A DNA stretch of 32,000 bases from Promethearchaeota archaeon (GTDB lineage Archaea; Asgardarchaeota; Lokiarchaeia; Sigyniarchaeales; Promethearchaeaceae), in the NCBI GenBank assembly GCA_016933055.1, contig JAFGBS010000004.1, positions 150,001-182,000 of the forward strand, read 5' to 3'. The position numbers and the translations under genes are program-made. The notes beneath the pieces were generated by a model that saw only the letters and a program-made list of their open reading frames with translations, had not been told where the DNA came from and made no database searches. This document shows positions 23,854-32,000 of this stretch, in pieces; positions within the stretch are counted from its first letter, which is position 1; every line of letters begins with the position of its first letter.

Positions 23854-24576
23854 TTATTTTTTATTACCGGTTCTCCGTGCTGCAATTAATCCCACTTTGC
23901 GACCAGGTGGAGCATTCCTACTAATGGTTGTAGGCTTGTGGGGGCTTTTATGTCCTCCTCCTCCAAATGGGTGGGAAGAAGCATTCATTGCCACACCAGA
24001 CGTCCTTGGCCATACACCATGTCTGGTACTCTGATACATGAATTTATTCCCTGCCTTTACGAATGGTTTGATAGTTCTACCGCCTCCTGCAACCACTCCT
24101 ATCGTACATCTGGATGTTAAGGGGACTCTCTTAATTTTCCCTGAAGGTAATCGAATATTAGCATGGGTCGGTGTTTTGGTTAACATAACGGCATATGTAC
24201 CTGATCCGCGAACAAATTTTCCCCCATCATCTTTCTGACCCTCTATATTATAAATATACGTTCCTTCTGGGATATTTTTCAAAATCAAGACATTTCCTAC
24301 TTTTATTTCGGAGTTGTTTCCTATGACTATGGTATCTCCTACCTTTATTCCCTCAGGAGGAAGGTACAATTCTTTTTTACCATCCTCATATTGAATTAAG
24401 GCAACAGGAGCTCCACGTCCTGGATCATGGAGTAAATCTTTGACAGTTGCAGTCTTTTCATCCGTATCAGTTGGGGGGAAATATCGATATTTTACTTGTC
24501 CTCTGCGCTTATGAGTTGGGGATTGAAAATTGGGAGTTCCTCTTCCTCTTCTCTGTACGAGTATTCTTTTACCCAT
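23854..24576 (-). CDS. rpl2: 50S ribosomal protein uL2
   Basis: MGKRILVQRRGRG, HDPGRGAP, DGGKFVRGSG, LPSGK, GVAMNASSHPFGGG, APPGRKVGLIAARRTG. Start at ATG 24576 rather than 24585. Confidence 0.97.
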   Translation of the reverse strand: MGKRILVQRRGRGTPNFQSPTHKRRGQVKYRYFPPTDTDEKTATVKDLLHDPGRGAPVALIQYEDGKKELYLPPEGIKVGDTIVIGNNSEIKVGNVLILKNIPEGTYIYNIEGQKDDGGKFVRGSGTYAVMLTKTPTHANIRLPSGKIKRVPLTSRCTIGVVAGGGRTIKPFVKAGNKFMYQSTRHGVWPRTSGVAMNASSHPFGGGGHKSPHKPTTISRNAPPGRKVGLIAARRTGNKK

Positions 24577-24735
24577 GTTTATCACTATATTATAGGATCT
24601 TGATGACTAATATCTGAATGTCTAAATCTATAATCGCATATTTTTGAATTTTGTCATTTGTGAAGCGCAATTCACCGATCGTTAGGTATCCAAAACTTTT
24701 TTTCACACCACTCTCTAACATCCTTGGGAAACCTA

Positions 24736-25842
24736 ATGGACGAAAATAAACGATTACAAGCAAAAATCGAGGAATTAACCAAGGAACGGGATCTGTATAA
24801 AAATAATTTTTCTAGATTACAAAGTCAGATCCAGCGAACCAGACCGCCCCTATTAATTGCTTCCGTGACACGAATTTTCGATGACGGATATTGTATCATT
24901 CACACTCCTTCAGGAAACGATTTTTTAGTACAAAATCCGTTTCGAGAACTGAGTCCAGGTGACTCCGTTGGAATTGATCAAACTACGTTTAATCTAATAA
25001 AGATTTTACCACCAAATGTAGATCGTTTTGTTGCCGGGATGGAATTAGATGAACGTCCTCAAGAAACTTATGAAGACATCGGAGGATTGGATGAAGTGAT
25101 CTTATCTCTTCGTGAAGTAGTAGAATTAGCTATTACTAATCCTAAAATTTTTCAGACTATCGGGATCCAACCTCCAAATGGAGTGTTATTAGAGGGGGAT
25201 CCGGGAACTGGAAAAACCCTTTTGGCACGAGCTGTGGCAAATGCAACCCAAGCAACTTTTATACGATTGGTAGGGTCTGAATTAGTGCAGAAATATATTG
25301 GAGAAGGTGCACGTTTAGTAAGAGAGCTATTTGCTTTAGCAAGAGATCGTGCCCCATGTATTTTATTTATTGATGAAATTGACGCTATCGCTTCAAGAAG
25401 AACTCCTGATTCACAAGTTTCCGATCGTGAAGTACAACGTACATTAATGCAATTACTAGCGGAAATGGATGGGTTTAACGAATTAGGAAATGTAAAAATT
25501 CTTGCCGCAACCAATCGTCCCGATATATTAGATCCGGCTATCCTCCGACCAGGAAGATTTGATCGGATTATTCATATACCAGAACCAGATCCTCATGGAC
25601 GATTAGAGATTTTCAAAATTCACACCCGAAAAATGCCCTTGAAAAATGTAAAATTAAGTATACTGTCTCAGAAATGGGATAAACTAACGGGTGCAGATAT
25701 TAAAGCGATATGCATTGAAGCAGGTTTAAATGCGATTCGAAATAACAGGACTACCGTCGTACAGAGTGATTTTGAAATAGGCTATAATAGATATTTCCGA
25801 AAACTTCAAGAAAAACGGGTAGGTGCTGCGGTTTATACTTAA
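24736..25842 (+). CDS. pan: Proteasome-activating nucleotidase (AAA+)
   Basis: Short coiled coil + OB domain, YEDIGGL, Walker A GDPGTGKT, pore loop VQKYIGEG, Walker B FIDEID, DREVQRT, SRH ATNRPDILDPAILRPGRFDR, C-terminal HbYX (VYT). Alternative TTG start 24724. Confidence 0.93.
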   Translation: MDENKRLQAKIEELTKERDLYKNNFSRLQSQIQRTRPPLLIASVTRIFDDGYCIIHTPSGNDFLVQNPFRELSPGDSVGIDQTTFNLIKILPPNVDRFVAGMELDERPQETYEDIGGLDEVILSLREVVELAITNPKIFQTIGIQPPNGVLLEGDPGTGKTLLARAVANATQATFIRLVGSELVQKYIGEGARLVRELFALARDRAPCILFIDEIDAIASRRTPDSQVSDREVQRTLMQLLAEMDGFNELGNVKILAATNRPDILDPAILRPGRFDRIIHIPEPDPHGRLEIFKIHTRKMPLKNVKLSILSQKWDKLTGADIKAICIEAGLNAIRNNRTTVVQSDFEIGYNRYFRKLQEKRVGAAVYT

Positions 25843-25854
25843 GTCATATTTCTT

Positions 25855-27306
25855 TTATTCTTCAGTTTTATGTACTTGCTCTCCCCAATAGTGTTCCTTG
25901 GGATTTGGGTCTAACGTTGTTGTAATCTCGGAAATATTTTCTTCAATACCTTGCATAATTAAATATCCCGAGTTTAACTCTCTATCTGTGATCTCCCCTG
26001 CTATATTGGTAGTCATAATTTCTTTTACTTCAGTTATATTTCGTGTATGCCCTAATGTCCAAATCAATTTAGCATACGCTGCTGAGGGTAGCATATTATC
26101 TCCCTCAATTACTCCTAAAGCTAACATATCTCTACCTGTTTCGTATACTCGGAGATTTGTGTACCCAAAAAGAGGCTCTACAACAATAACTACTGGTATT
26201 TCTTGTTCTTGGGCACGTTCTAAACCTGGGAAGAAATCACTTGGGACATGTCCCAATCCGGTTCCTAAGATTACCACTCCATGGTATCCCAAATCAATGA
26301 TAGAGTTAAGTATATCTGGATTACAACCAGGATAAGAATATAGGATTGCCACCTTAGGATCAATTTTTGCATCAAGATAAGTATCTTCCGTGTTCCCACG
26401 TTGTTTTATATCAGTTTTAAAAAACATTATATTCTGTTTTGAGTCGATCATTCCTAACGGGATATCACTTAGCGTTTTGAATGCATCTCGTCTACTTGAA
26501 TGCATTTTCCGAACACGAGTTCCCCGATGGATAAGATTATAAGTATCAGATGTATTACCATGCATGCATACAACCACTTCTGCTAAATCTGCATATCCTG
26601 CAATAGTGCTTGCATTGATAATATTCATAGGCCCATCGCTAGACGGTCTATCTGAACTTCTTTGCGACCCCACGATGACAATGGGGGCTGCAAGATCTTT
26701 AAAGAAAAAGGACAATGCTGATGCCGTAAATGCCATTGTATCAGTTCCATGACCAATAATTACCCCACTTGCCCCATTATGAAATTCTTGGAGAATGGCT
26801 TCAGCAGTTTTTACCCAATATTCTGGTTTGAAGTTTTCAGAGAGGATGGAATAAATCTTTTTAGGAGTCAGATTGCAAATGTTCATCAGTTCTGGAACCG
26901 CACTAAAAAGTTCCTCTGGGGTGAATGCTGGTAAAACAGATCCTGTTCGATAGTCTAAACGAGATGCAACTGTCCCTCCCGTTCCCAGTAATGATACATT
27001 TGGTAATTCCTTTTTAGTTTTTACATCAATTTCAGGTAGATGATAGTCTCCCTTCTGGTATCCGATTTCGGTGATTTTGCATTCATCGGTAATTTTTACA
27101 CCAATGTTATAACCAGTATCAACTTTTACGACCAAATAATCTTCGGCAGTGTGTTCACTACGAGGAAGTACCACACCCTCATAAATAGAATTTCCTCTCA
27201 CTACTTTTACTACAGACCAAACCCCTATCTTTTCCCTAATTAGTCTTTCTCGTAACTTCGATCTGTATCCCGTAGGTTCTCGCACTGAATTTTTCTTGTT
27301 TGGCAT
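25855..27306 (-). CDS. gatD: Glu-tRNA(Gln) amidotransferase subunit D, paralog B
   Basis: N-terminal GatD domain (TGYNIGV), TGGTVASRLDY, HGTDT, GSQRSSDRPSSD, RGTRVRKMHSSRRDAF, GTGLGH; extra ~27-aa C-terminal tail. Start ATG 27306 or GTG 27315. Confidence 0.95.
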   Translation of the reverse strand: MPNKKNSVREPTGYRSKLRERLIREKIGVWSVVKVVRGNSIYEGVVLPRSEHTAEDYLVVKVDTGYNIGVKITDECKITEIGYQKGDYHLPEIDVKTKKELPNVSLLGTGGTVASRLDYRTGSVLPAFTPEELFSAVPELMNICNLTPKKIYSILSENFKPEYWVKTAEAILQEFHNGASGVIIGHGTDTMAFTASALSFFFKDLAAPIVIVGSQRSSDRPSSDGPMNIINASTIAGYADLAEVVVCMHGNTSDTYNLIHRGTRVRKMHSSRRDAFKTLSDIPLGMIDSKQNIMFFKTDIKQRGNTEDTYLDAKIDPKVAILYSYPGCNPDILNSIIDLGYHGVVILGTGLGHVPSDFFPGLERAQEQEIPVVIVVEPLFGYTNLRVYETGRDMLALGVIEGDNMLPSAAYAKLIWTLGHTRNITEVKEIMTTNIAGEITDRELNSGYLIMQGIEENISEITTTLDPNPKEHYWGEQVHKTEE

Positions 27307-27311
27307 TTTTC

Positions 27312-29033
27312 TCACACCTTCTTTGGTTCTAGATATTTCTGCGCTGCAAAATCATAGATATTATTTTTTTTCTTTAATCCTTGCTGAATTACTATTTTTA
27401 TCTCTTCCACGCCCATATCGGAGGTGTTTACTCCCTTTCGACGAAGATGTTTCAAAGTTTCCGTCAAATAAGAGTAAGCTATTATAGGTTTTATGTTATA
27501 ATCTTTAATTAATATCAAGAAGTCATCCAAACGGTTTTCATGGACTAAATTCTGCAATTGATTGAATTTTAATCCATATTTTTCCGAAAATTCTTTTTCT
27601 AACTCCCATGGACGTTTCCCAACCTTAGATTTTAAGGATTGAATCCTTTGTAATTCTAAATCTAACGCAGGAGTATCAGTATCGGGATATAAGCGATCTT
27701 TTCCATGAATTACTCGTAAAAACTCCGAATTTCCGTTAGGTAGTAGTCTGCGTGTTTCTTGTGGAACACCATCTAGTGCATATTTCAACCGTTCAATAAT
27801 TTTTTTCATTGCATGAATTGTCCACGAATTTTTTCCCATTGCAACACAATACGCATCACGTTCCGTTATATCCAACACATCACAAATTTTTCCATCTAAA
27901 CTCTTATCGATCAATGGAAATAAAAAGGGTAATTTTTTATTTCTTCTACGTTGGGCGTTATCAGAAAGTTCATCTGAATGATACATGTGCTCTACCAGAA
28001 TTCCGCTGATTAAACTTGCTTTTTCAAATACATCTTGACCAAAATCCTTTCCTGGTTGTATTTCTAATCCTAAGATTCCTTTAAATTTGGGCAACCGAAT
28101 TGCCATGACGCTTAATCCTTTTGGAATGCTATCAGAGGGAAATTCTTCTGTGATTTCATAATAAGTATGTTCTAAATGTGACTTTTCAAAACCTCGCTCC
28201 TTTAATATCCCTGCAATCTGAATTAACATATCCTGTCTGACTATTTCATGCCTCGCAAGTGTATCAAACATAGAAAGATCTTGAACTCCCTTAATTTCAA
28301 CCCGATCTCCGCCTTTAATACTGATATTTACATCTTGACGAACCGAACCTATGCCGGTTCTTCCGATTCCACTAAGTCTTAAGGTTAATCCGATGATTTC
28401 TCCTAGTTTTTTCAAATCCGTAGGATTTGTGCAATCTAGATGGTCCGTAATCACCTCCACCAAGGGAATTCCCAATCGATCCAGATTATAATACACCGTA
28501 CGTCCGAAATTCTCCGTTTTTAGTTTTCGGGCTGCATCCTCTTCTACAGTTAAATTTGATATTCGCACCCTTTTCCCGTTCACCTCTACCCACCCATCTC
28601 TGGCTACAATTAAAGTACGCTGAAAACCGGTTGTGATAGAGCCATCCAAATATTGTTTCCGGGCTACTATCCCAACATCCACCAACGCTGAGCAATTTAG
28701 CCAGTGTGCTAGTTGATACCCCGCATAAATTGCCTCTAAGTCTGGCCAAAACGGTGGTTGTTCATCTTGTTCGTATAAACATGTGCATTCCGTATAAGCA
28801 TGATAGATAACACGATATCCTTTCTCGTATTCAATTAACATTCCCTCATCAAAATCACCCATTTCTCCTAATACAGGACGGAAACGCCGTTCGAACATAT
28901 AATCAGGAGTCTCCGTTCGTAATTCTGGTTTACAATTACAAAATAGTTTCCGCTTAGATTGGATTTGGTGGTGGACTTCTAAACCAGCTCTAAAACCAAT
29001 CTCTTCAAATGAAATTGTTTCGGGATCGAGCAT
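27312..29033 (-). CDS. gatE: Glu-tRNA(Gln) amidotransferase subunit E, paralog B, lacking the C-terminal Yqey-like tail
   Basis: GLEVH, KLFC, RKQYLDGS..GFQRT, EEDAAR, LDRLGIPLVE, RQDVNISI, EIKGVQ, RLYPDTD; ends 120 aa after YPDTD. Confidence 0.93.
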   Translation of the reverse strand: MLDPETISFEEIGFRAGLEVHHQIQSKRKLFCNCKPELRTETPDYMFERRFRPVLGEMGDFDEGMLIEYEKGYRVIYHAYTECTCLYEQDEQPPFWPDLEAIYAGYQLAHWLNCSALVDVGIVARKQYLDGSITTGFQRTLIVARDGWVEVNGKRVRISNLTVEEDAARKLKTENFGRTVYYNLDRLGIPLVEVITDHLDCTNPTDLKKLGEIIGLTLRLSGIGRTGIGSVRQDVNISIKGGDRVEIKGVQDLSMFDTLARHEIVRQDMLIQIAGILKERGFEKSHLEHTYYEITEEFPSDSIPKGLSVMAIRLPKFKGILGLEIQPGKDFGQDVFEKASLISGILVEHMYHSDELSDNAQRRRNKKLPFLFPLIDKSLDGKICDVLDITERDAYCVAMGKNSWTIHAMKKIIERLKYALDGVPQETRRLLPNGNSEFLRVIHGKDRLYPDTDTPALDLELQRIQSLKSKVGKRPWELEKEFSEKYGLKFNQLQNLVHENRLDDFLILIKDYNIKPIIAYSYLTETLKHLRRKGVNTSDMGVEEIKIVIQQGLKKKNNIYDFAAQKYLEPKKV

Positions 29034-29084: not shown

Positions 29085-30446
29085 TTATTCTGTCCTTCCT
29101 TGAAGAATCCTATATCCTCGTATCTCTTCGCGTGGAAGGATCTCTCCTGCTATGTTTGTGATCATTAGGGTTCTAATTTCATCTTTCGATTCACATTCCC
29201 CTAGGATCCAGCAGAGTTTCGCGAACGCTGTTTCGGGGATCATGTCTGCGGGGATAACTCCTAAATCCTTCAATTTTCGTCCATTAGAATATACGTCCAT
29301 TCCAGTAAATCCCCATAATGTTTGTAAAGCCATAACTACTGTAACGTCTTCGGAAGTCGCACGGTCAATCGCTTTAAAAGTATGATTTGGAGCGTGTCCC
29401 AACCCCGTACCTGCAAAAACCATTCCTTTATATCCCTTATCAATATAAAAATCTATTATTTCTGCAGACATGCCGGGATAGATATGCACTAATGCACATT
29501 TGGACTCTATTTTTGTGGAGCACACTGTATCAACATCCGAATTCACCTCAGATTTACGAACCAGATTATTTTTAAACCAAGTGATTTCACCATGATCAAT
29601 TTTTCCAAGAGGAATATCTCCAATTGTTTTAAATGCATCACGGGCAGAAGAATGCATTTTTCGTACACGAGTCCCTCGGTGAATATATCCAAAAGTATGG
29701 GAAGAACTACCAAGCATACATAACACGACTTCTGCTATATCTCCGTTTGCAGCCAACTGAGTTGCATGAATCAGGTTCATAGCAGCATCAGATGACGGGC
29801 GATCCGAAGATCTCTGACTACCCACAAAAACTACGGGTATTTTAAGATTTTTAACTAAGAAGGATAATGCCGCCGTGGAATATCCGATGGTATCGGTACC
29901 GTGCCCAATTACTACTCCATCTATCTCTTTGTTACTTAAAGAAGCAACTTCTTTTGCTAGCCTTAACCAATTTTTAGGCTCCATATCCTCGGAGAAAATT
30001 TTAAACACAATTTTTGTATCCAAGTTACAAATATCAGCAAGTTCTGGCACAGCGGCATATAATTCATGGGGTTGAAAAGCTGGTATCACTCCCCCTGTCA
30101 CATAATCTAGTCGAGACGCAATTGTGCCTCCAGTTCCTAATAAAGTCACATTGGGTTTAGCTCTATCTTTAGGAACTGAAACCCCTTTGAATTCCACTTT
30201 CATGGGGGGGTTTTTACCTACAACCCGAACAGTATCCAAATCTTGCACTTTTATCCCAATATTATACCCATTTTTCAACTTGATCTCGATATACCCATCC
30301 TCTGCAAACTGATTCCTGGGTAATATTATTCCTTGAAAGATTGAATTTCCTTTTTTGATCTCCACCTTATCCCATGCTTCAATATCATGTTCTTTGAAAA
30401 ATTTCTTGGATATATGCTTGTAACCTTTAGGTAAATTTGAAGGCAT
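29085..30446 (-). CDS. gatD: Glu-tRNA(Gln) amidotransferase subunit D, paralog A
   Basis: LKNGYNIGI, TGGTIASRLDY, HGTDT, GSQRSSDRPSSD, RGTRVRKMHSSARDAF, GTGLGH. Confidence 0.95.
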   Translation of the reverse strand: MPSNLPKGYKHISKKFFKEHDIEAWDKVEIKKGNSIFQGIILPRNQFAEDGYIEIKLKNGYNIGIKVQDLDTVRVVGKNPPMKVEFKGVSVPKDRAKPNVTLLGTGGTIASRLDYVTGGVIPAFQPHELYAAVPELADICNLDTKIVFKIFSEDMEPKNWLRLAKEVASLSNKEIDGVVIGHGTDTIGYSTAALSFLVKNLKIPVVFVGSQRSSDRPSSDAAMNLIHATQLAANGDIAEVVLCMLGSSSHTFGYIHRGTRVRKMHSSARDAFKTIGDIPLGKIDHGEITWFKNNLVRKSEVNSDVDTVCSTKIESKCALVHIYPGMSAEIIDFYIDKGYKGMVFAGTGLGHAPNHTFKAIDRATSEDVTVVMALQTLWGFTGMDVYSNGRKLKDLGVIPADMIPETAFAKLCWILGECESKDEIRTLMITNIAGEILPREEIRGYRILQGRTE

Positions 30447-32000
30447 CTATTCTTCCTCCTTTTTTAATAAATTAGTCATTTCTGATTTGACTACTTGAGA
30501 GACTATCTTTCCGTCTATTTTTCCCCTTACTTCTTTCATTACTTCACCCATTATGGGACCCATTGCCCCCATCTGACGTTCACGAATAAGAGAAACAAAG
30601 CTTGGCATCAATGACTGCACGATCTTTCTTAGTTCTTCAATACTCATCGAGGTTATGTCCATAGTTTGCATAGCATCTTTAATTGTGGACTGGGGCTGGT
30701 CACACAAATATGCTAATATCTCTTCAATTGCCTCCTTTGCTATCAGTTTTTTTTCAAGTAACTCAAAAATGCGCACAAAATGGGAATCTTTTAGATTCTC
30801 TACTTCTTTTCCATCTCTTCTGAGAGTTTTAATCGTTTCTAATAACGTGCTAACGATGATTGTGGGTTTTCCAGAATATACTTTAAGGATTTCTTCCAAT
30901 AGTTGAAGATTTCCATCAAGAGTGAGTTGCTCTAATGACTCGTGAGGAATTTTATATCTTTTCTCGAACTCCTTCATTACTTCCCAGGGATAGCGTGGAA
31001 GATTTGCTTGGATTTGTTTTAATTTTTCAGAAGAGATGGGTATTTCTCTTGAATCTGTATCGGGATATAATCGTTTTGCACCATGTAATTCGCGTAAGAA
31101 TTCCGTATTTCCATCCTCTAAGGCTTTACGGGTCTCTTCTGGTACTCCCTCCAAAGCTTTGATTAACCGATCTCTAACAATTTCAAATGCTTGAAACAAT
31201 CGGTCAGGCTTTCCTAAAATCAATACAAATAAATCCTTTTCATCACATTTCAAGGACTTCTTAATATCTAAGATTTCTGATTCGGAAAATTGATACTTGG
31301 AGAGAACTTCATCGCTATGAATTAATCCTTTTAAACCAGTTATTGATCCCATTTTACTAGCAATTTCTGTACCAAATCTACGCCCTTCTTGAATTTCTTC
31401 TCCCCAAAGAGCGTGCATATTTGGTACCCTCCATCCCCAAACCAATTTCCCCTTTTTTACTCCGTTACGAACAAATTTACATTTAGTTTCTTGGAATATT
31501 TCCGTTATATCTAAAGGATTGTCAGTAAAACTAGTGGGTGTCAATTTTCGCTTTAACATTTCATTGCGTATATCAAGAAGCGCTAATTGCCGAGTCACCT
31601 CATTTCGAATTAAAATGGGAATCCAATCTAATTTTTGTACCCCTTTGATCTCGATACGGGCTCCTCCCTTTATGGAAACATTGAGATCTTGACGGATAGC
31701 TCCTAAAATCTTCTTTACCTTTCCTGTACTTCTCAGAAGGATACCTATTCGCAATGCAGCTAAGCGTGCTTCTTCTGGTTCATTAATATCGGGTGCAGTT
31801 GTAACCTCTACTAATGGAATTCCTAAACGATCTAATCGAAATTGGATCATATTTTCTTTCTCTCCGGATCTTCTACAAGAATCTTCTTCAAGACAAAGTA
31901 ATTCAATACCAATGTTTTTGTGTTCAGAAATTGGAATATCTCCATTAATCCCAACTATGGCAGTCCTTTGAAAGCCTGCAGGAACACTTCCATCAACATA
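30447..32000 (-). CDS. gatE: Glu-tRNA(Gln) amidotransferase subunit E, paralog A (5' end beyond window)
   Basis: The frame stays open past 31850 to the window edge (YVDGSVPAGFQRTAIVG...LEEDSCRR...), then LDRLGIPLVE, RQDLNVSI, RLYPDTD and a full C-terminal MGEVMKEVRGKIDGK Yqey-like domain. Confidence 0.95.
   Translation of the reverse strand, partial: YVDGSVPAGFQRTAIVGINGDIPISEHKNIGIELLCLEEDSCRRSGEKENMIQFRLDRLGIPLVEVTTAPDINEPEEARLAALRIGILLRSTGKVKKILGAIRQDLNVSIKGGARIEIKGVQKLDWIPILIRNEVTRQLALLDIRNEMLKRKLTPTSFTDNPLDITEIFQETKCKFVRNGVKKGKLVWGWRVPNMHALWGEEIQEGRRFGTEIASKMGSITGLKGLIHSDEVLSKYQFSESEILDIKKSLKCDEKDLFVLILGKPDRLFQAFEIVRDRLIKALEGVPEETRKALEDGNTEFLRELHGAKRLYPDTDSREIPISSEKLKQIQANLPRYPWEVMKEFEKRYKIPHESLEQLTLDGNLQLLEEILKVYSGKPTIIVSTLLETIKTLRRDGKEVENLKDSHFVRIFELLEKKLIAKEAIEEILAYLCDQPQSTIKDAMQTMDITSMSIEELRKIVQSLMPSFVSLIRERQMGAMGPIMGEVMKEVRGKIDGKIVSQVVKSEMTNLLKKEEE

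Follow-up and report, generated by a model that had tools for sequence, protein, structure and literature searches.

We found that a 32,000-nucleotide (nt) stretch of a Promethearchaeota archaeon genome (GCA_016933055.1, contig JAFGBS010000004.1; hereafter the window, to whose full length all positions refer) encodes two pairs of the GatDE amidotransferase, and that the GatE subunit of the second pair, GatE-B, has lost the YqeY-type tail domain and is retained with its catalytic parts in place. GatDE is regarded as a signature enzyme of archaea that is present in single copy and serves one purpose, the conversion of Glu-tRNA(Gln) to Gln-tRNA(Gln), and its GatE tail, like that of GatB, as necessary for tRNA binding and discrimination. 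GatE-B belongs to a separate lineage that we call type B, a label coined here and a term not found in the literature searched. The genome (labelled G000; assembly of 3.76 Mb, 91% complete) was placed, by named database matches and relatives, in the Lokiarchaeal family (f1) that includes Promethearchaeum syntrophicum and Lokiarchaeum ossiferum. Four co-oriented minus-strand genes lie in the window, gatE-A, gatD-A, gatE-B and gatD-B, and both pairs are recognised as GatE and GatD by Pfam and NCBIfam profiles. Identity between A and B is 36% for GatE and 46% for GatD, and the two pairs are 51 nt apart in what appears to be one operon.

The absence of the tail was apparent in every comparison of the protein. 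The YPDTD motif (residues 449-453 of GatE-B) is followed by 120 residues compared with 201 in GatE-A, as an earlier note on this DNA had reported, and GatE-B ends ~85-95 residues early, directly ahead of gatD-B, with no YqeY-type tail. Its profile match stops at position 531 of 630 in NF003107, where GatE-A reaches 629, and at 524 of 622 in TIGR00134; a Pfam search with PF02637 (GatB_Yqey) matched GatE-A and gave no match in GatE-B. Alignments to solved GatE chains end at residue 521 of 619 (2d6f_C) and 530 of 633 (1zq1_C). GatE-B scored over the TIGR00134 cut-off (405.9 vs. 319.55 bits) and slightly below that of NF003107 (450.4 vs. 456 bits), this shortfall arising from the final 100 profile positions, which have no match. 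An AlphaFold2 model of GatE-B (48 type-B sequences; predicted local distance difference test score 81, predicted template-modelling score 0.82) contained seven confident helices past YPDTD and superposed with 1zq1_C and 2d6f, solved chains in which the tail is itself unresolved, over their ordered parts (template-modelling score 0.68-0.80), such that GatE-B equals GatE minus its flexible tail.

The stop codon leaves no room for a tail remnant, since the gatE-B TGA abuts the start of gatD-B, in agreement with the earlier note. A GTG overlaps this TGA and an ATG further on is preceded by a GGTG-type ribosome-binding motif; judged from that motif, the ATG is the more likely start of gatD-B. Because the genome has a selenocysteine tRNA, read-through of the TGA was considered, and was rejected because the next stop follows after 23 codons and no tail is encoded in between.

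We then compared GatE-B with its orthologs. In a sister species of the same genus (G001) the protein is truncated at 576 residues, and five more distinct metagenome proteins have 575-579 residues, a sixth being identical to the sister-species protein. The seven distinct tail-less sequences have one alignment end point, a conserved new C-terminus and only 72-86% mutual identity, which indicates that the deletion is old and fixed and that the truncation is no fresh nonsense mutation, as had been proposed. These alignments show an in-frame deletion that took out exactly the YqeY-type tail domain. All orthologs outside this genus keep the tail (620-676 residues), including those of three other genera of the family (55-64% identity, cultured species among them) and of four further Asgard families. 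Tail loss is, on this comparison, a genus-level derived state, lineage-restricted and neither an isolated accident nor a trait of type B overall. The earlier note had taken it as a property of the paralog as such, with tailed orthologs as an outcome that would refute its interpretation, and concluded that substrate recognition has changed; a change in tRNA recognition is very probable, and the truncation belongs to one genus.

Divergence between G000 and G001 was lower in the B pair than in the canonical pair. Nonsynonymous divergence (dN) was 0.151 for gatE-B and 0.087 for gatD-B, compared with 0.204 for gatE-A and 0.163 for gatD-A, and the ratio of dN to synonymous divergence (omega) was ~0.05, a value meaningful as an order of magnitude only because synonymous divergence was saturated. 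The region of the helical domain that precedes the lost tail gave a dN of 0.345 and an omega of ~0.14. With no frameshifts or internal stops in the seven intact genes, gatE-B is by these measures no pseudogene and is under purifying selection, which contradicts the pseudogenisation that the earlier note had raised as a way in which its interpretation might fail. Four otherwise conserved sites are changed only in the tail-less genus (E120V, R226T, I497V and R498H); of these, R226T lies in the loop facing the first tRNA base pair and replaces an Arg that 32/32 full-length type-B sequences retain, and R498H belongs to the helical domain.

The catalytic parts of the enzyme are kept. The cradle of GatE-B matched PF02934 with E = 1e-39, and GatE-B has all 66 residues that do not vary among 35 GatE of types A and B. 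In Methanothermobacter thermautotrophicus GatE, mutation of the Mg2+ ligands His15, Glu157 and Glu184 inactivates the enzyme (PMC2330236), and the corresponding residues of GatE-B in the 2d6f_C alignment, His21, Glu164 and Glu193, are invariant in the same 35 sequences, so that the statement that the kinase/amidase core is retained holds. The loop at the position that faces the first tRNA base pair in GatE (PMC2811023) reads IGRR in type B compared with KVKR in canonical GatE, and the LRRxG motif of the helical domain is common to canonical GatE and GatE-B. The AspRS-like insertion domain aligns with GatE-A, 1zq1 and 2d6f and is folded in the AlphaFold2 model, with the Pfam GAD model reaching E = 0.01 in GatE-A and not in GatE-B. 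Within this domain the basic segment DNAQRRRNKKLPFLFPL described earlier is real (residues 358-374), but it was not gained with tail loss: the insertion that holds it is also present, variable in form, in the full-length type-B orthologs of the family, and so did not arise with the truncation. GatD-B scored 518.8 bits against TIGR02153 and keeps the TGGT, HGTDT and RKMHSS motifs. Together these comparisons show the kinase-transamidase cradle, insertion domain, helical domain and GatD glutaminase to be intact, as judged from sequence and predicted fold.

Compared with the canonical GatDE of M. thermautotrophicus (2D6F) and Pyrococcus abyssi (1ZQ1), the B pair thus has the same gene pair, cradle, AspRS-like and helical domains, Mg2+ ligands and asparaginase-type GatD, and differs in that GatE-B is 33-40% identical, falls in a separate clade, has IGRR/IGRT in place of the KVKR loop and an extra insertion, and lacks the tail, which has decayed throughout the clade. 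The GatB subunit of GatCAB has a paralogous kinase/transamidase core and a YqeY-type tail, but is without the AspRS-like insertion and partners GatA and GatC. Engineered GatB tail-deletion mutants have the same architecture as GatE-B, a catalytic core without the YqeY tail; the GatB tail is reportedly required for GatCAB to bind tRNA(Gln) (PMC2811023), whereas the natural tail-less GatE-B has been kept in seven lineages under purifying selection.

Type B was recovered as a clade of 16 sequences in a tree with GatB as outgroup (Shimodaira-Hasegawa-like approximate likelihood ratio test support 100; stem of 1.0 changes per site), and GatE-B falls within it, sharing the signatures GLEVHHQ, ITTGFQRT, the IGR(R/T) loop and the insertion in the AspRS-like domain. 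In a survey of ~300 Asgard genomes, type B occurred with type A in part of f1, in f30 and in f27, and as the sole GatE in all 27 genomes examined of f10, two of them closed. Family f26 (one genus, 19 genomes) had 10 genomes with type A only, 6 with type B only and 1 with both, and the two types look interchangeable within this genus. That type B is the only GatDE in f10 and part of f26 argues for a self-sufficient amidotransferase. Copies from f1 and f30 group together though the families belong to different classes, which suggests horizontal transfer between these lineages. Database matches at 51-66% identity to GatE-B are named Heimdallarchaeota or Heimdallarchaeaceae, so the four non-Lokiarchaeal type-B families are probably Heimdallarchaeia. 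Our literature search found no paper linking GatDE paralogs to Asgard lineages, and type B is apparently a much larger, previously undescribed GatDE lineage.

Conservation along the protein differed between the two types. Mean pairwise identity was higher in type B than in canonical GatE in the N-terminal cradle (0.68 vs. 0.58) and the C-terminal cradle (0.82 vs. 0.69), and lower in the tail (0.24 vs. 0.39), where each type-B family shows its own decayed form of the canonical motif MGxVMKxxRGKxDGK. Type B has also not kept the GxxAxGx tail motif, to which a part in distinguishing tRNA(Gln) from tRNA(Asn) has been ascribed (PMC2811023). These results indicate that type B depends less on the tail across the clade, with its chemistry tightly held, such that tail loss completes a relaxation of elbow recognition that runs through the whole clade.

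The tRNA and synthetase complement of G000 bears on the likely substrate. The first base pair alone could discriminate tRNA(Gln), with A1-U72 in both genes (UUG and CUG), from tRNA(Glu), with G1-C72. A special tRNA substrate was considered and set aside: both tRNA(Gln) are ordinary, tRNA(Asn) has G1-C72 here and in relatives with full-length type B, and nothing discriminating was found. The tRNA-Gln(CUG) gene (G000:C36:712-819) contains a 35-nt intron at a non-canonical D-arm position, with exons near-identical to the intron-less tRNA-Gln(UUG) (C5:25052-25125); no tRNA(Asp) was found by aragorn in intron mode, whose tRNA list is incomplete. Aspartyl-tRNA synthetase (AspRS) of G000 and G001 has Lys where GatCAB-bearing relatives have Pro (7/7), and asparaginyl-tRNA synthetase (AsnRS) and an AsnB-like gene are present in the tail-less genus, so only Glu-tRNA(Gln), and no Asp-tRNA(Asn), is expected as a mischarged tRNA. 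GatB was not found in G000. The AsnB-like asparagine synthase (G000:C17:136387-137697) scored 181 bits against Pfam Asn_synthase and below the equivalog cut-offs of NCBIfam; sister genera instead have archaeal AsnA, an AsnRS paralog (G010:C1:552062-552997; NF005054, 349 bits).

On this evidence we tentatively favor, at somewhat short of even confidence, the reading that GatDE-B of the tail-less genus is an active tRNA-dependent amidotransferase working without a D-loop check. GatE-B would most likely phosphorylate and then amidate the side-chain carboxylate of the amino acid that a mischarged tRNA carries at its 3' end, and the tRNA would be held by its acceptor stem and T-arm side only, the D-loop (elbow) check made by the tail of canonical GatE and GatB being absent. 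The substrate in G000 would most likely be Glu-tRNA(Gln), with the first base pair possibly serving to reject tRNA(Glu); at the family level, type B may have acted, or may also act, on Asp-tRNA(Asn). Several points weigh against this reading. In canonical enzymes, tRNA binding reportedly requires the tail (PMC2811023), and a canonical GatDE-A in the same operon makes a second Glu-tRNA(Gln) amidotransferase look redundant. Two of the genus-specific changes, R226T and R498H, fall in tRNA-recognition elements, with E120V in addition, and could equally mean that contacts to the tRNA body have been wholly given up.

The last point leads to the alternative that the tail-less enzyme has left tRNA and performs the same chemistry on a small molecule, a carrier- or protein-bound Glu or Asp, or a minimal RNA helix. 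Three putative tRNA-contact elements are altered together in the genus (the tail deletion, R226T and R498H), its AspRS with the discriminating-type Lys, its AsnRS and its AsnB-like gene predict no Asp-tRNA(Asn), and Glu-tRNA(Gln) is already covered by GatDE-A. However, the pocket of the cradle that takes the aminoacyl-CCA end is essentially unchanged, none of the four genus-specific changes is catalytic, and the helical domain is retained under constraint. Canonical GatD is inactive as a glutaminase without tRNA substrate (PMC2330236), and no new neighboring genes point to another pathway. We consider this alternative rather unlikely.

A distinctly unlikely alternative is that GatDE of type B can act on Asp-tRNA(Asn), perhaps with dual specificity, and took over from GatCAB, and that the tail-less form still does this work. 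No GatDE is known to act on Asp-tRNA(Asn). Type B and GatB never occurred together in the genomes searched and are complementary within f1, even within one genus (GatCAB in G005, type B in G009). A strict replacement of GatCAB by type B was nevertheless rejected, because GatB is also absent from many families with type A only (f12 0/71, f17 0/14) and the complementarity is therefore not specific. The non-discriminating-type Pro in AspRS was present in 8/8 f1 genomes with full-length type B, 14/16 in f10 and 8/8 in f30, but f26, genus g31 of f10 and the tail-less genus itself, which has Lys, combine type B with a non-Pro AspRS. This Pro, in the L1 loop, looked like proof of a need for an Asp-amidotransferase in a clean first sample; on the wider baseline it also appeared in f18, f19, f15, f20 and f24, which have neither GatCAB nor type B, so that it is a weak predictor and was downgraded to suggestive. 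The reading of Lys and Pro at this site rests on what Feng et al. reportedly found in 2003 and on two PDB calibrators. The loss in type B of the GxxAxGx motif, associated with rejection of tRNA(Asn), would fit such an activity, whereas published modelling predicts a clash of the GatE insertion domain with a class II AspRS in a transamidosome (PMC2330236).

The setting that best fits an Asp-tRNA(Asn) activity is that of f10. The closed genomes G064 and G101 have glutaminyl-tRNA synthetase (GlnRS), AsnRS and type B as their only GatDE, and AsnB, AsnA and archaeal AsnA were not found in them, which follows the logic of Thermus and Deinococcus (PMC2330236), where GatCAB is the sole route to asparagine and AsnRS is also present. 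The f10 combination of GlnRS, AsnRS and an amidotransferase with no Asn synthetase found mirrors that arrangement. A genuine GlnRS (TIGR00440, 630-750 bits vs. a cut-off of 426) was detected in 21/27 genomes of f10, 11/19 of f26 and 8/9 of f30 (e.g., G064:C1:1132418-1134016 and G236:C54:17088-18686); the 27 further families that were searched, f1 among them, gave no GlnRS. Its presence in Asgard archaea contrasts with a review statement that archaea have no GlnRS; a preprint from 2024 notes the enzyme, next to cox genes, for Hodarchaeales and Kariarchaeaceae.

Supply of the tail in trans, which the earlier note put forward with a mixed GatE-A/GatE-B complex on a GatD dimer as its example and for which a stand-alone YqeY-like protein would be another source, is very improbable. 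The two pairs share an orientation and an apparent operon in G000, but they lie 9 kb apart in the sister species, each GatE of the solved heterotetramer binds its own tRNA (PMC2330236), and a tblastn search of the assembly with six tails (five type-B and the A tail) matched the tail of GatE-A only. That gatE-B is a decaying copy heading for loss, redundant with GatDE-A and with one domain already gone, is scarcely credible given seven intact sequences of the same length and a dN below that of the canonical pair.

Several observations on related genes accompany these results. In f3 genomes an AsnRS gene (over cut-off) lies a few kb from gatB (e.g., G030:C42:17986-22336 and G036:C20:25786-30107), and both genes are present in most genomes of the family, which runs counter to the older rule that archaeal GatCAB occurs only where AsnRS is absent. 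GatCAB-bearing members of f1 have AspRS-like frames of ~600-616 residues, a bacterial-type length, and no AsnRS (G007:C276:2844-4490, G002:C718:1582-3228), so that two clearly distinct arrangements for Asn-tRNA exist within family f1. What looks like a second AspRS in f17 probably represents an AsnRS. In f30, a gene resembling archaeal AsnA (G236:C24:5339-6583) scored 295 bits against a cut-off of 309 and has an N-terminal extension and one in-frame TGA. In-frame TAG codons, in some cases also TAA, occur in the GatE frames of f23 and f13 (G066, G075, G082, G094, G099, G107 and G056) and may reflect pyrrolysine or other recoding, or split genes.

A conserved extension, LDPNPRFDA(Y/F)R or PNPKEH(Y/R)WG, is present at the C-terminus of type-B GatD in f1 and f30 and absent from other GatD (window 25855-26000; loci L031-L038), and the version in the tail-less genus resembles that of f30. 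The operon neighbors are ordinary housekeeping genes, for ribosomal protein L2 and for an AAA+ ATPase with a hint of a proteasomal-ATPase oligonucleotide/oligosaccharide-binding domain (23854-24585, minus strand, and 24724-25842, plus strand).

Table 1 Coordinates of the two gatDE pairs and of features of gatE-B in the window.
Feature	Positions	Strand	Remarks
gatE-B, type-B GatE without tail, 573 residues	27312..29033	-	Cradle, AspRS-like insertion domain and helical domain; from profiles, PDB alignment and AlphaFold2 model
gatD-B, type-B GatD	25855..27315 (ATG alternative: 25855..27306)	-	Intact asparaginase-type active site; C-terminal extension
gatD-A, canonical GatD	29085..30446	-	Pfam/NCBIfam profiles
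gatE-A, canonical full-length GatE with tail	30447..32000, 5' end outside window; full gene G000:C6:180471-182363	-	Profiles
gatE-B stop / gatD-B start junction	27304..27317	-	TGA 27314-27312; start GTG 27315-27313 or ATG 27306-27304
His21 codon	28971..28973	-	Mg2+ ligand, equivalent to His15
Glu164 codon	28542..28544	-	Mg2+ ligand, equivalent to Glu157
Glu193 codon	28455..28457	-	Mg2+ ligand, equivalent to Glu184
Loop LSGIGRTGIG	28347..28376	-	Position of GatE loop facing first tRNA base pair
DNAQRRRNKKLPFLFPL, basic part of insertion relative to GatE-A in AspRS-like domain	27912..27962	-	
Helical domain, residues 454-573	27315..27674	-	Seven predicted helices, LRRKG motif, new conserved C-terminus (S/N)(I/L)(Y/F)D(Y/F)A..KYL

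Among the archaea nearest to eukaryotes, the locus brings to light a further, widespread lineage of GatDE, which accompanies GlnRS and AsnRS in certain families and is the only GatDE of others, and which includes a tail-less form maintained by selection in several species. In its broadest form, which we regard as doubtful, the proposal would be that type-B GatDE forms a class of archaeal tRNA-dependent amidotransferase not recognised before, whose specificity for tRNA has loosened or shifted (able to use Asp-tRNA(Asn), or dual). It would stand in for GatCAB alongside GlnRS and AsnRS, and its tail-less form would be either a natural minimal enzyme that dispenses with elbow recognition or the first GatDE acting on a non-tRNA substrate. 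The lineage offers a handle on three questions: what the tail contributes, whether GatDE can serve Asn, and how direct and indirect routes to Gln-tRNA and Asn-tRNA are exchanged in Asgard archaea. Because the cultured P. syntrophicum and L. ossiferum have full-length type B, a comparison with the tail-less form is feasible.

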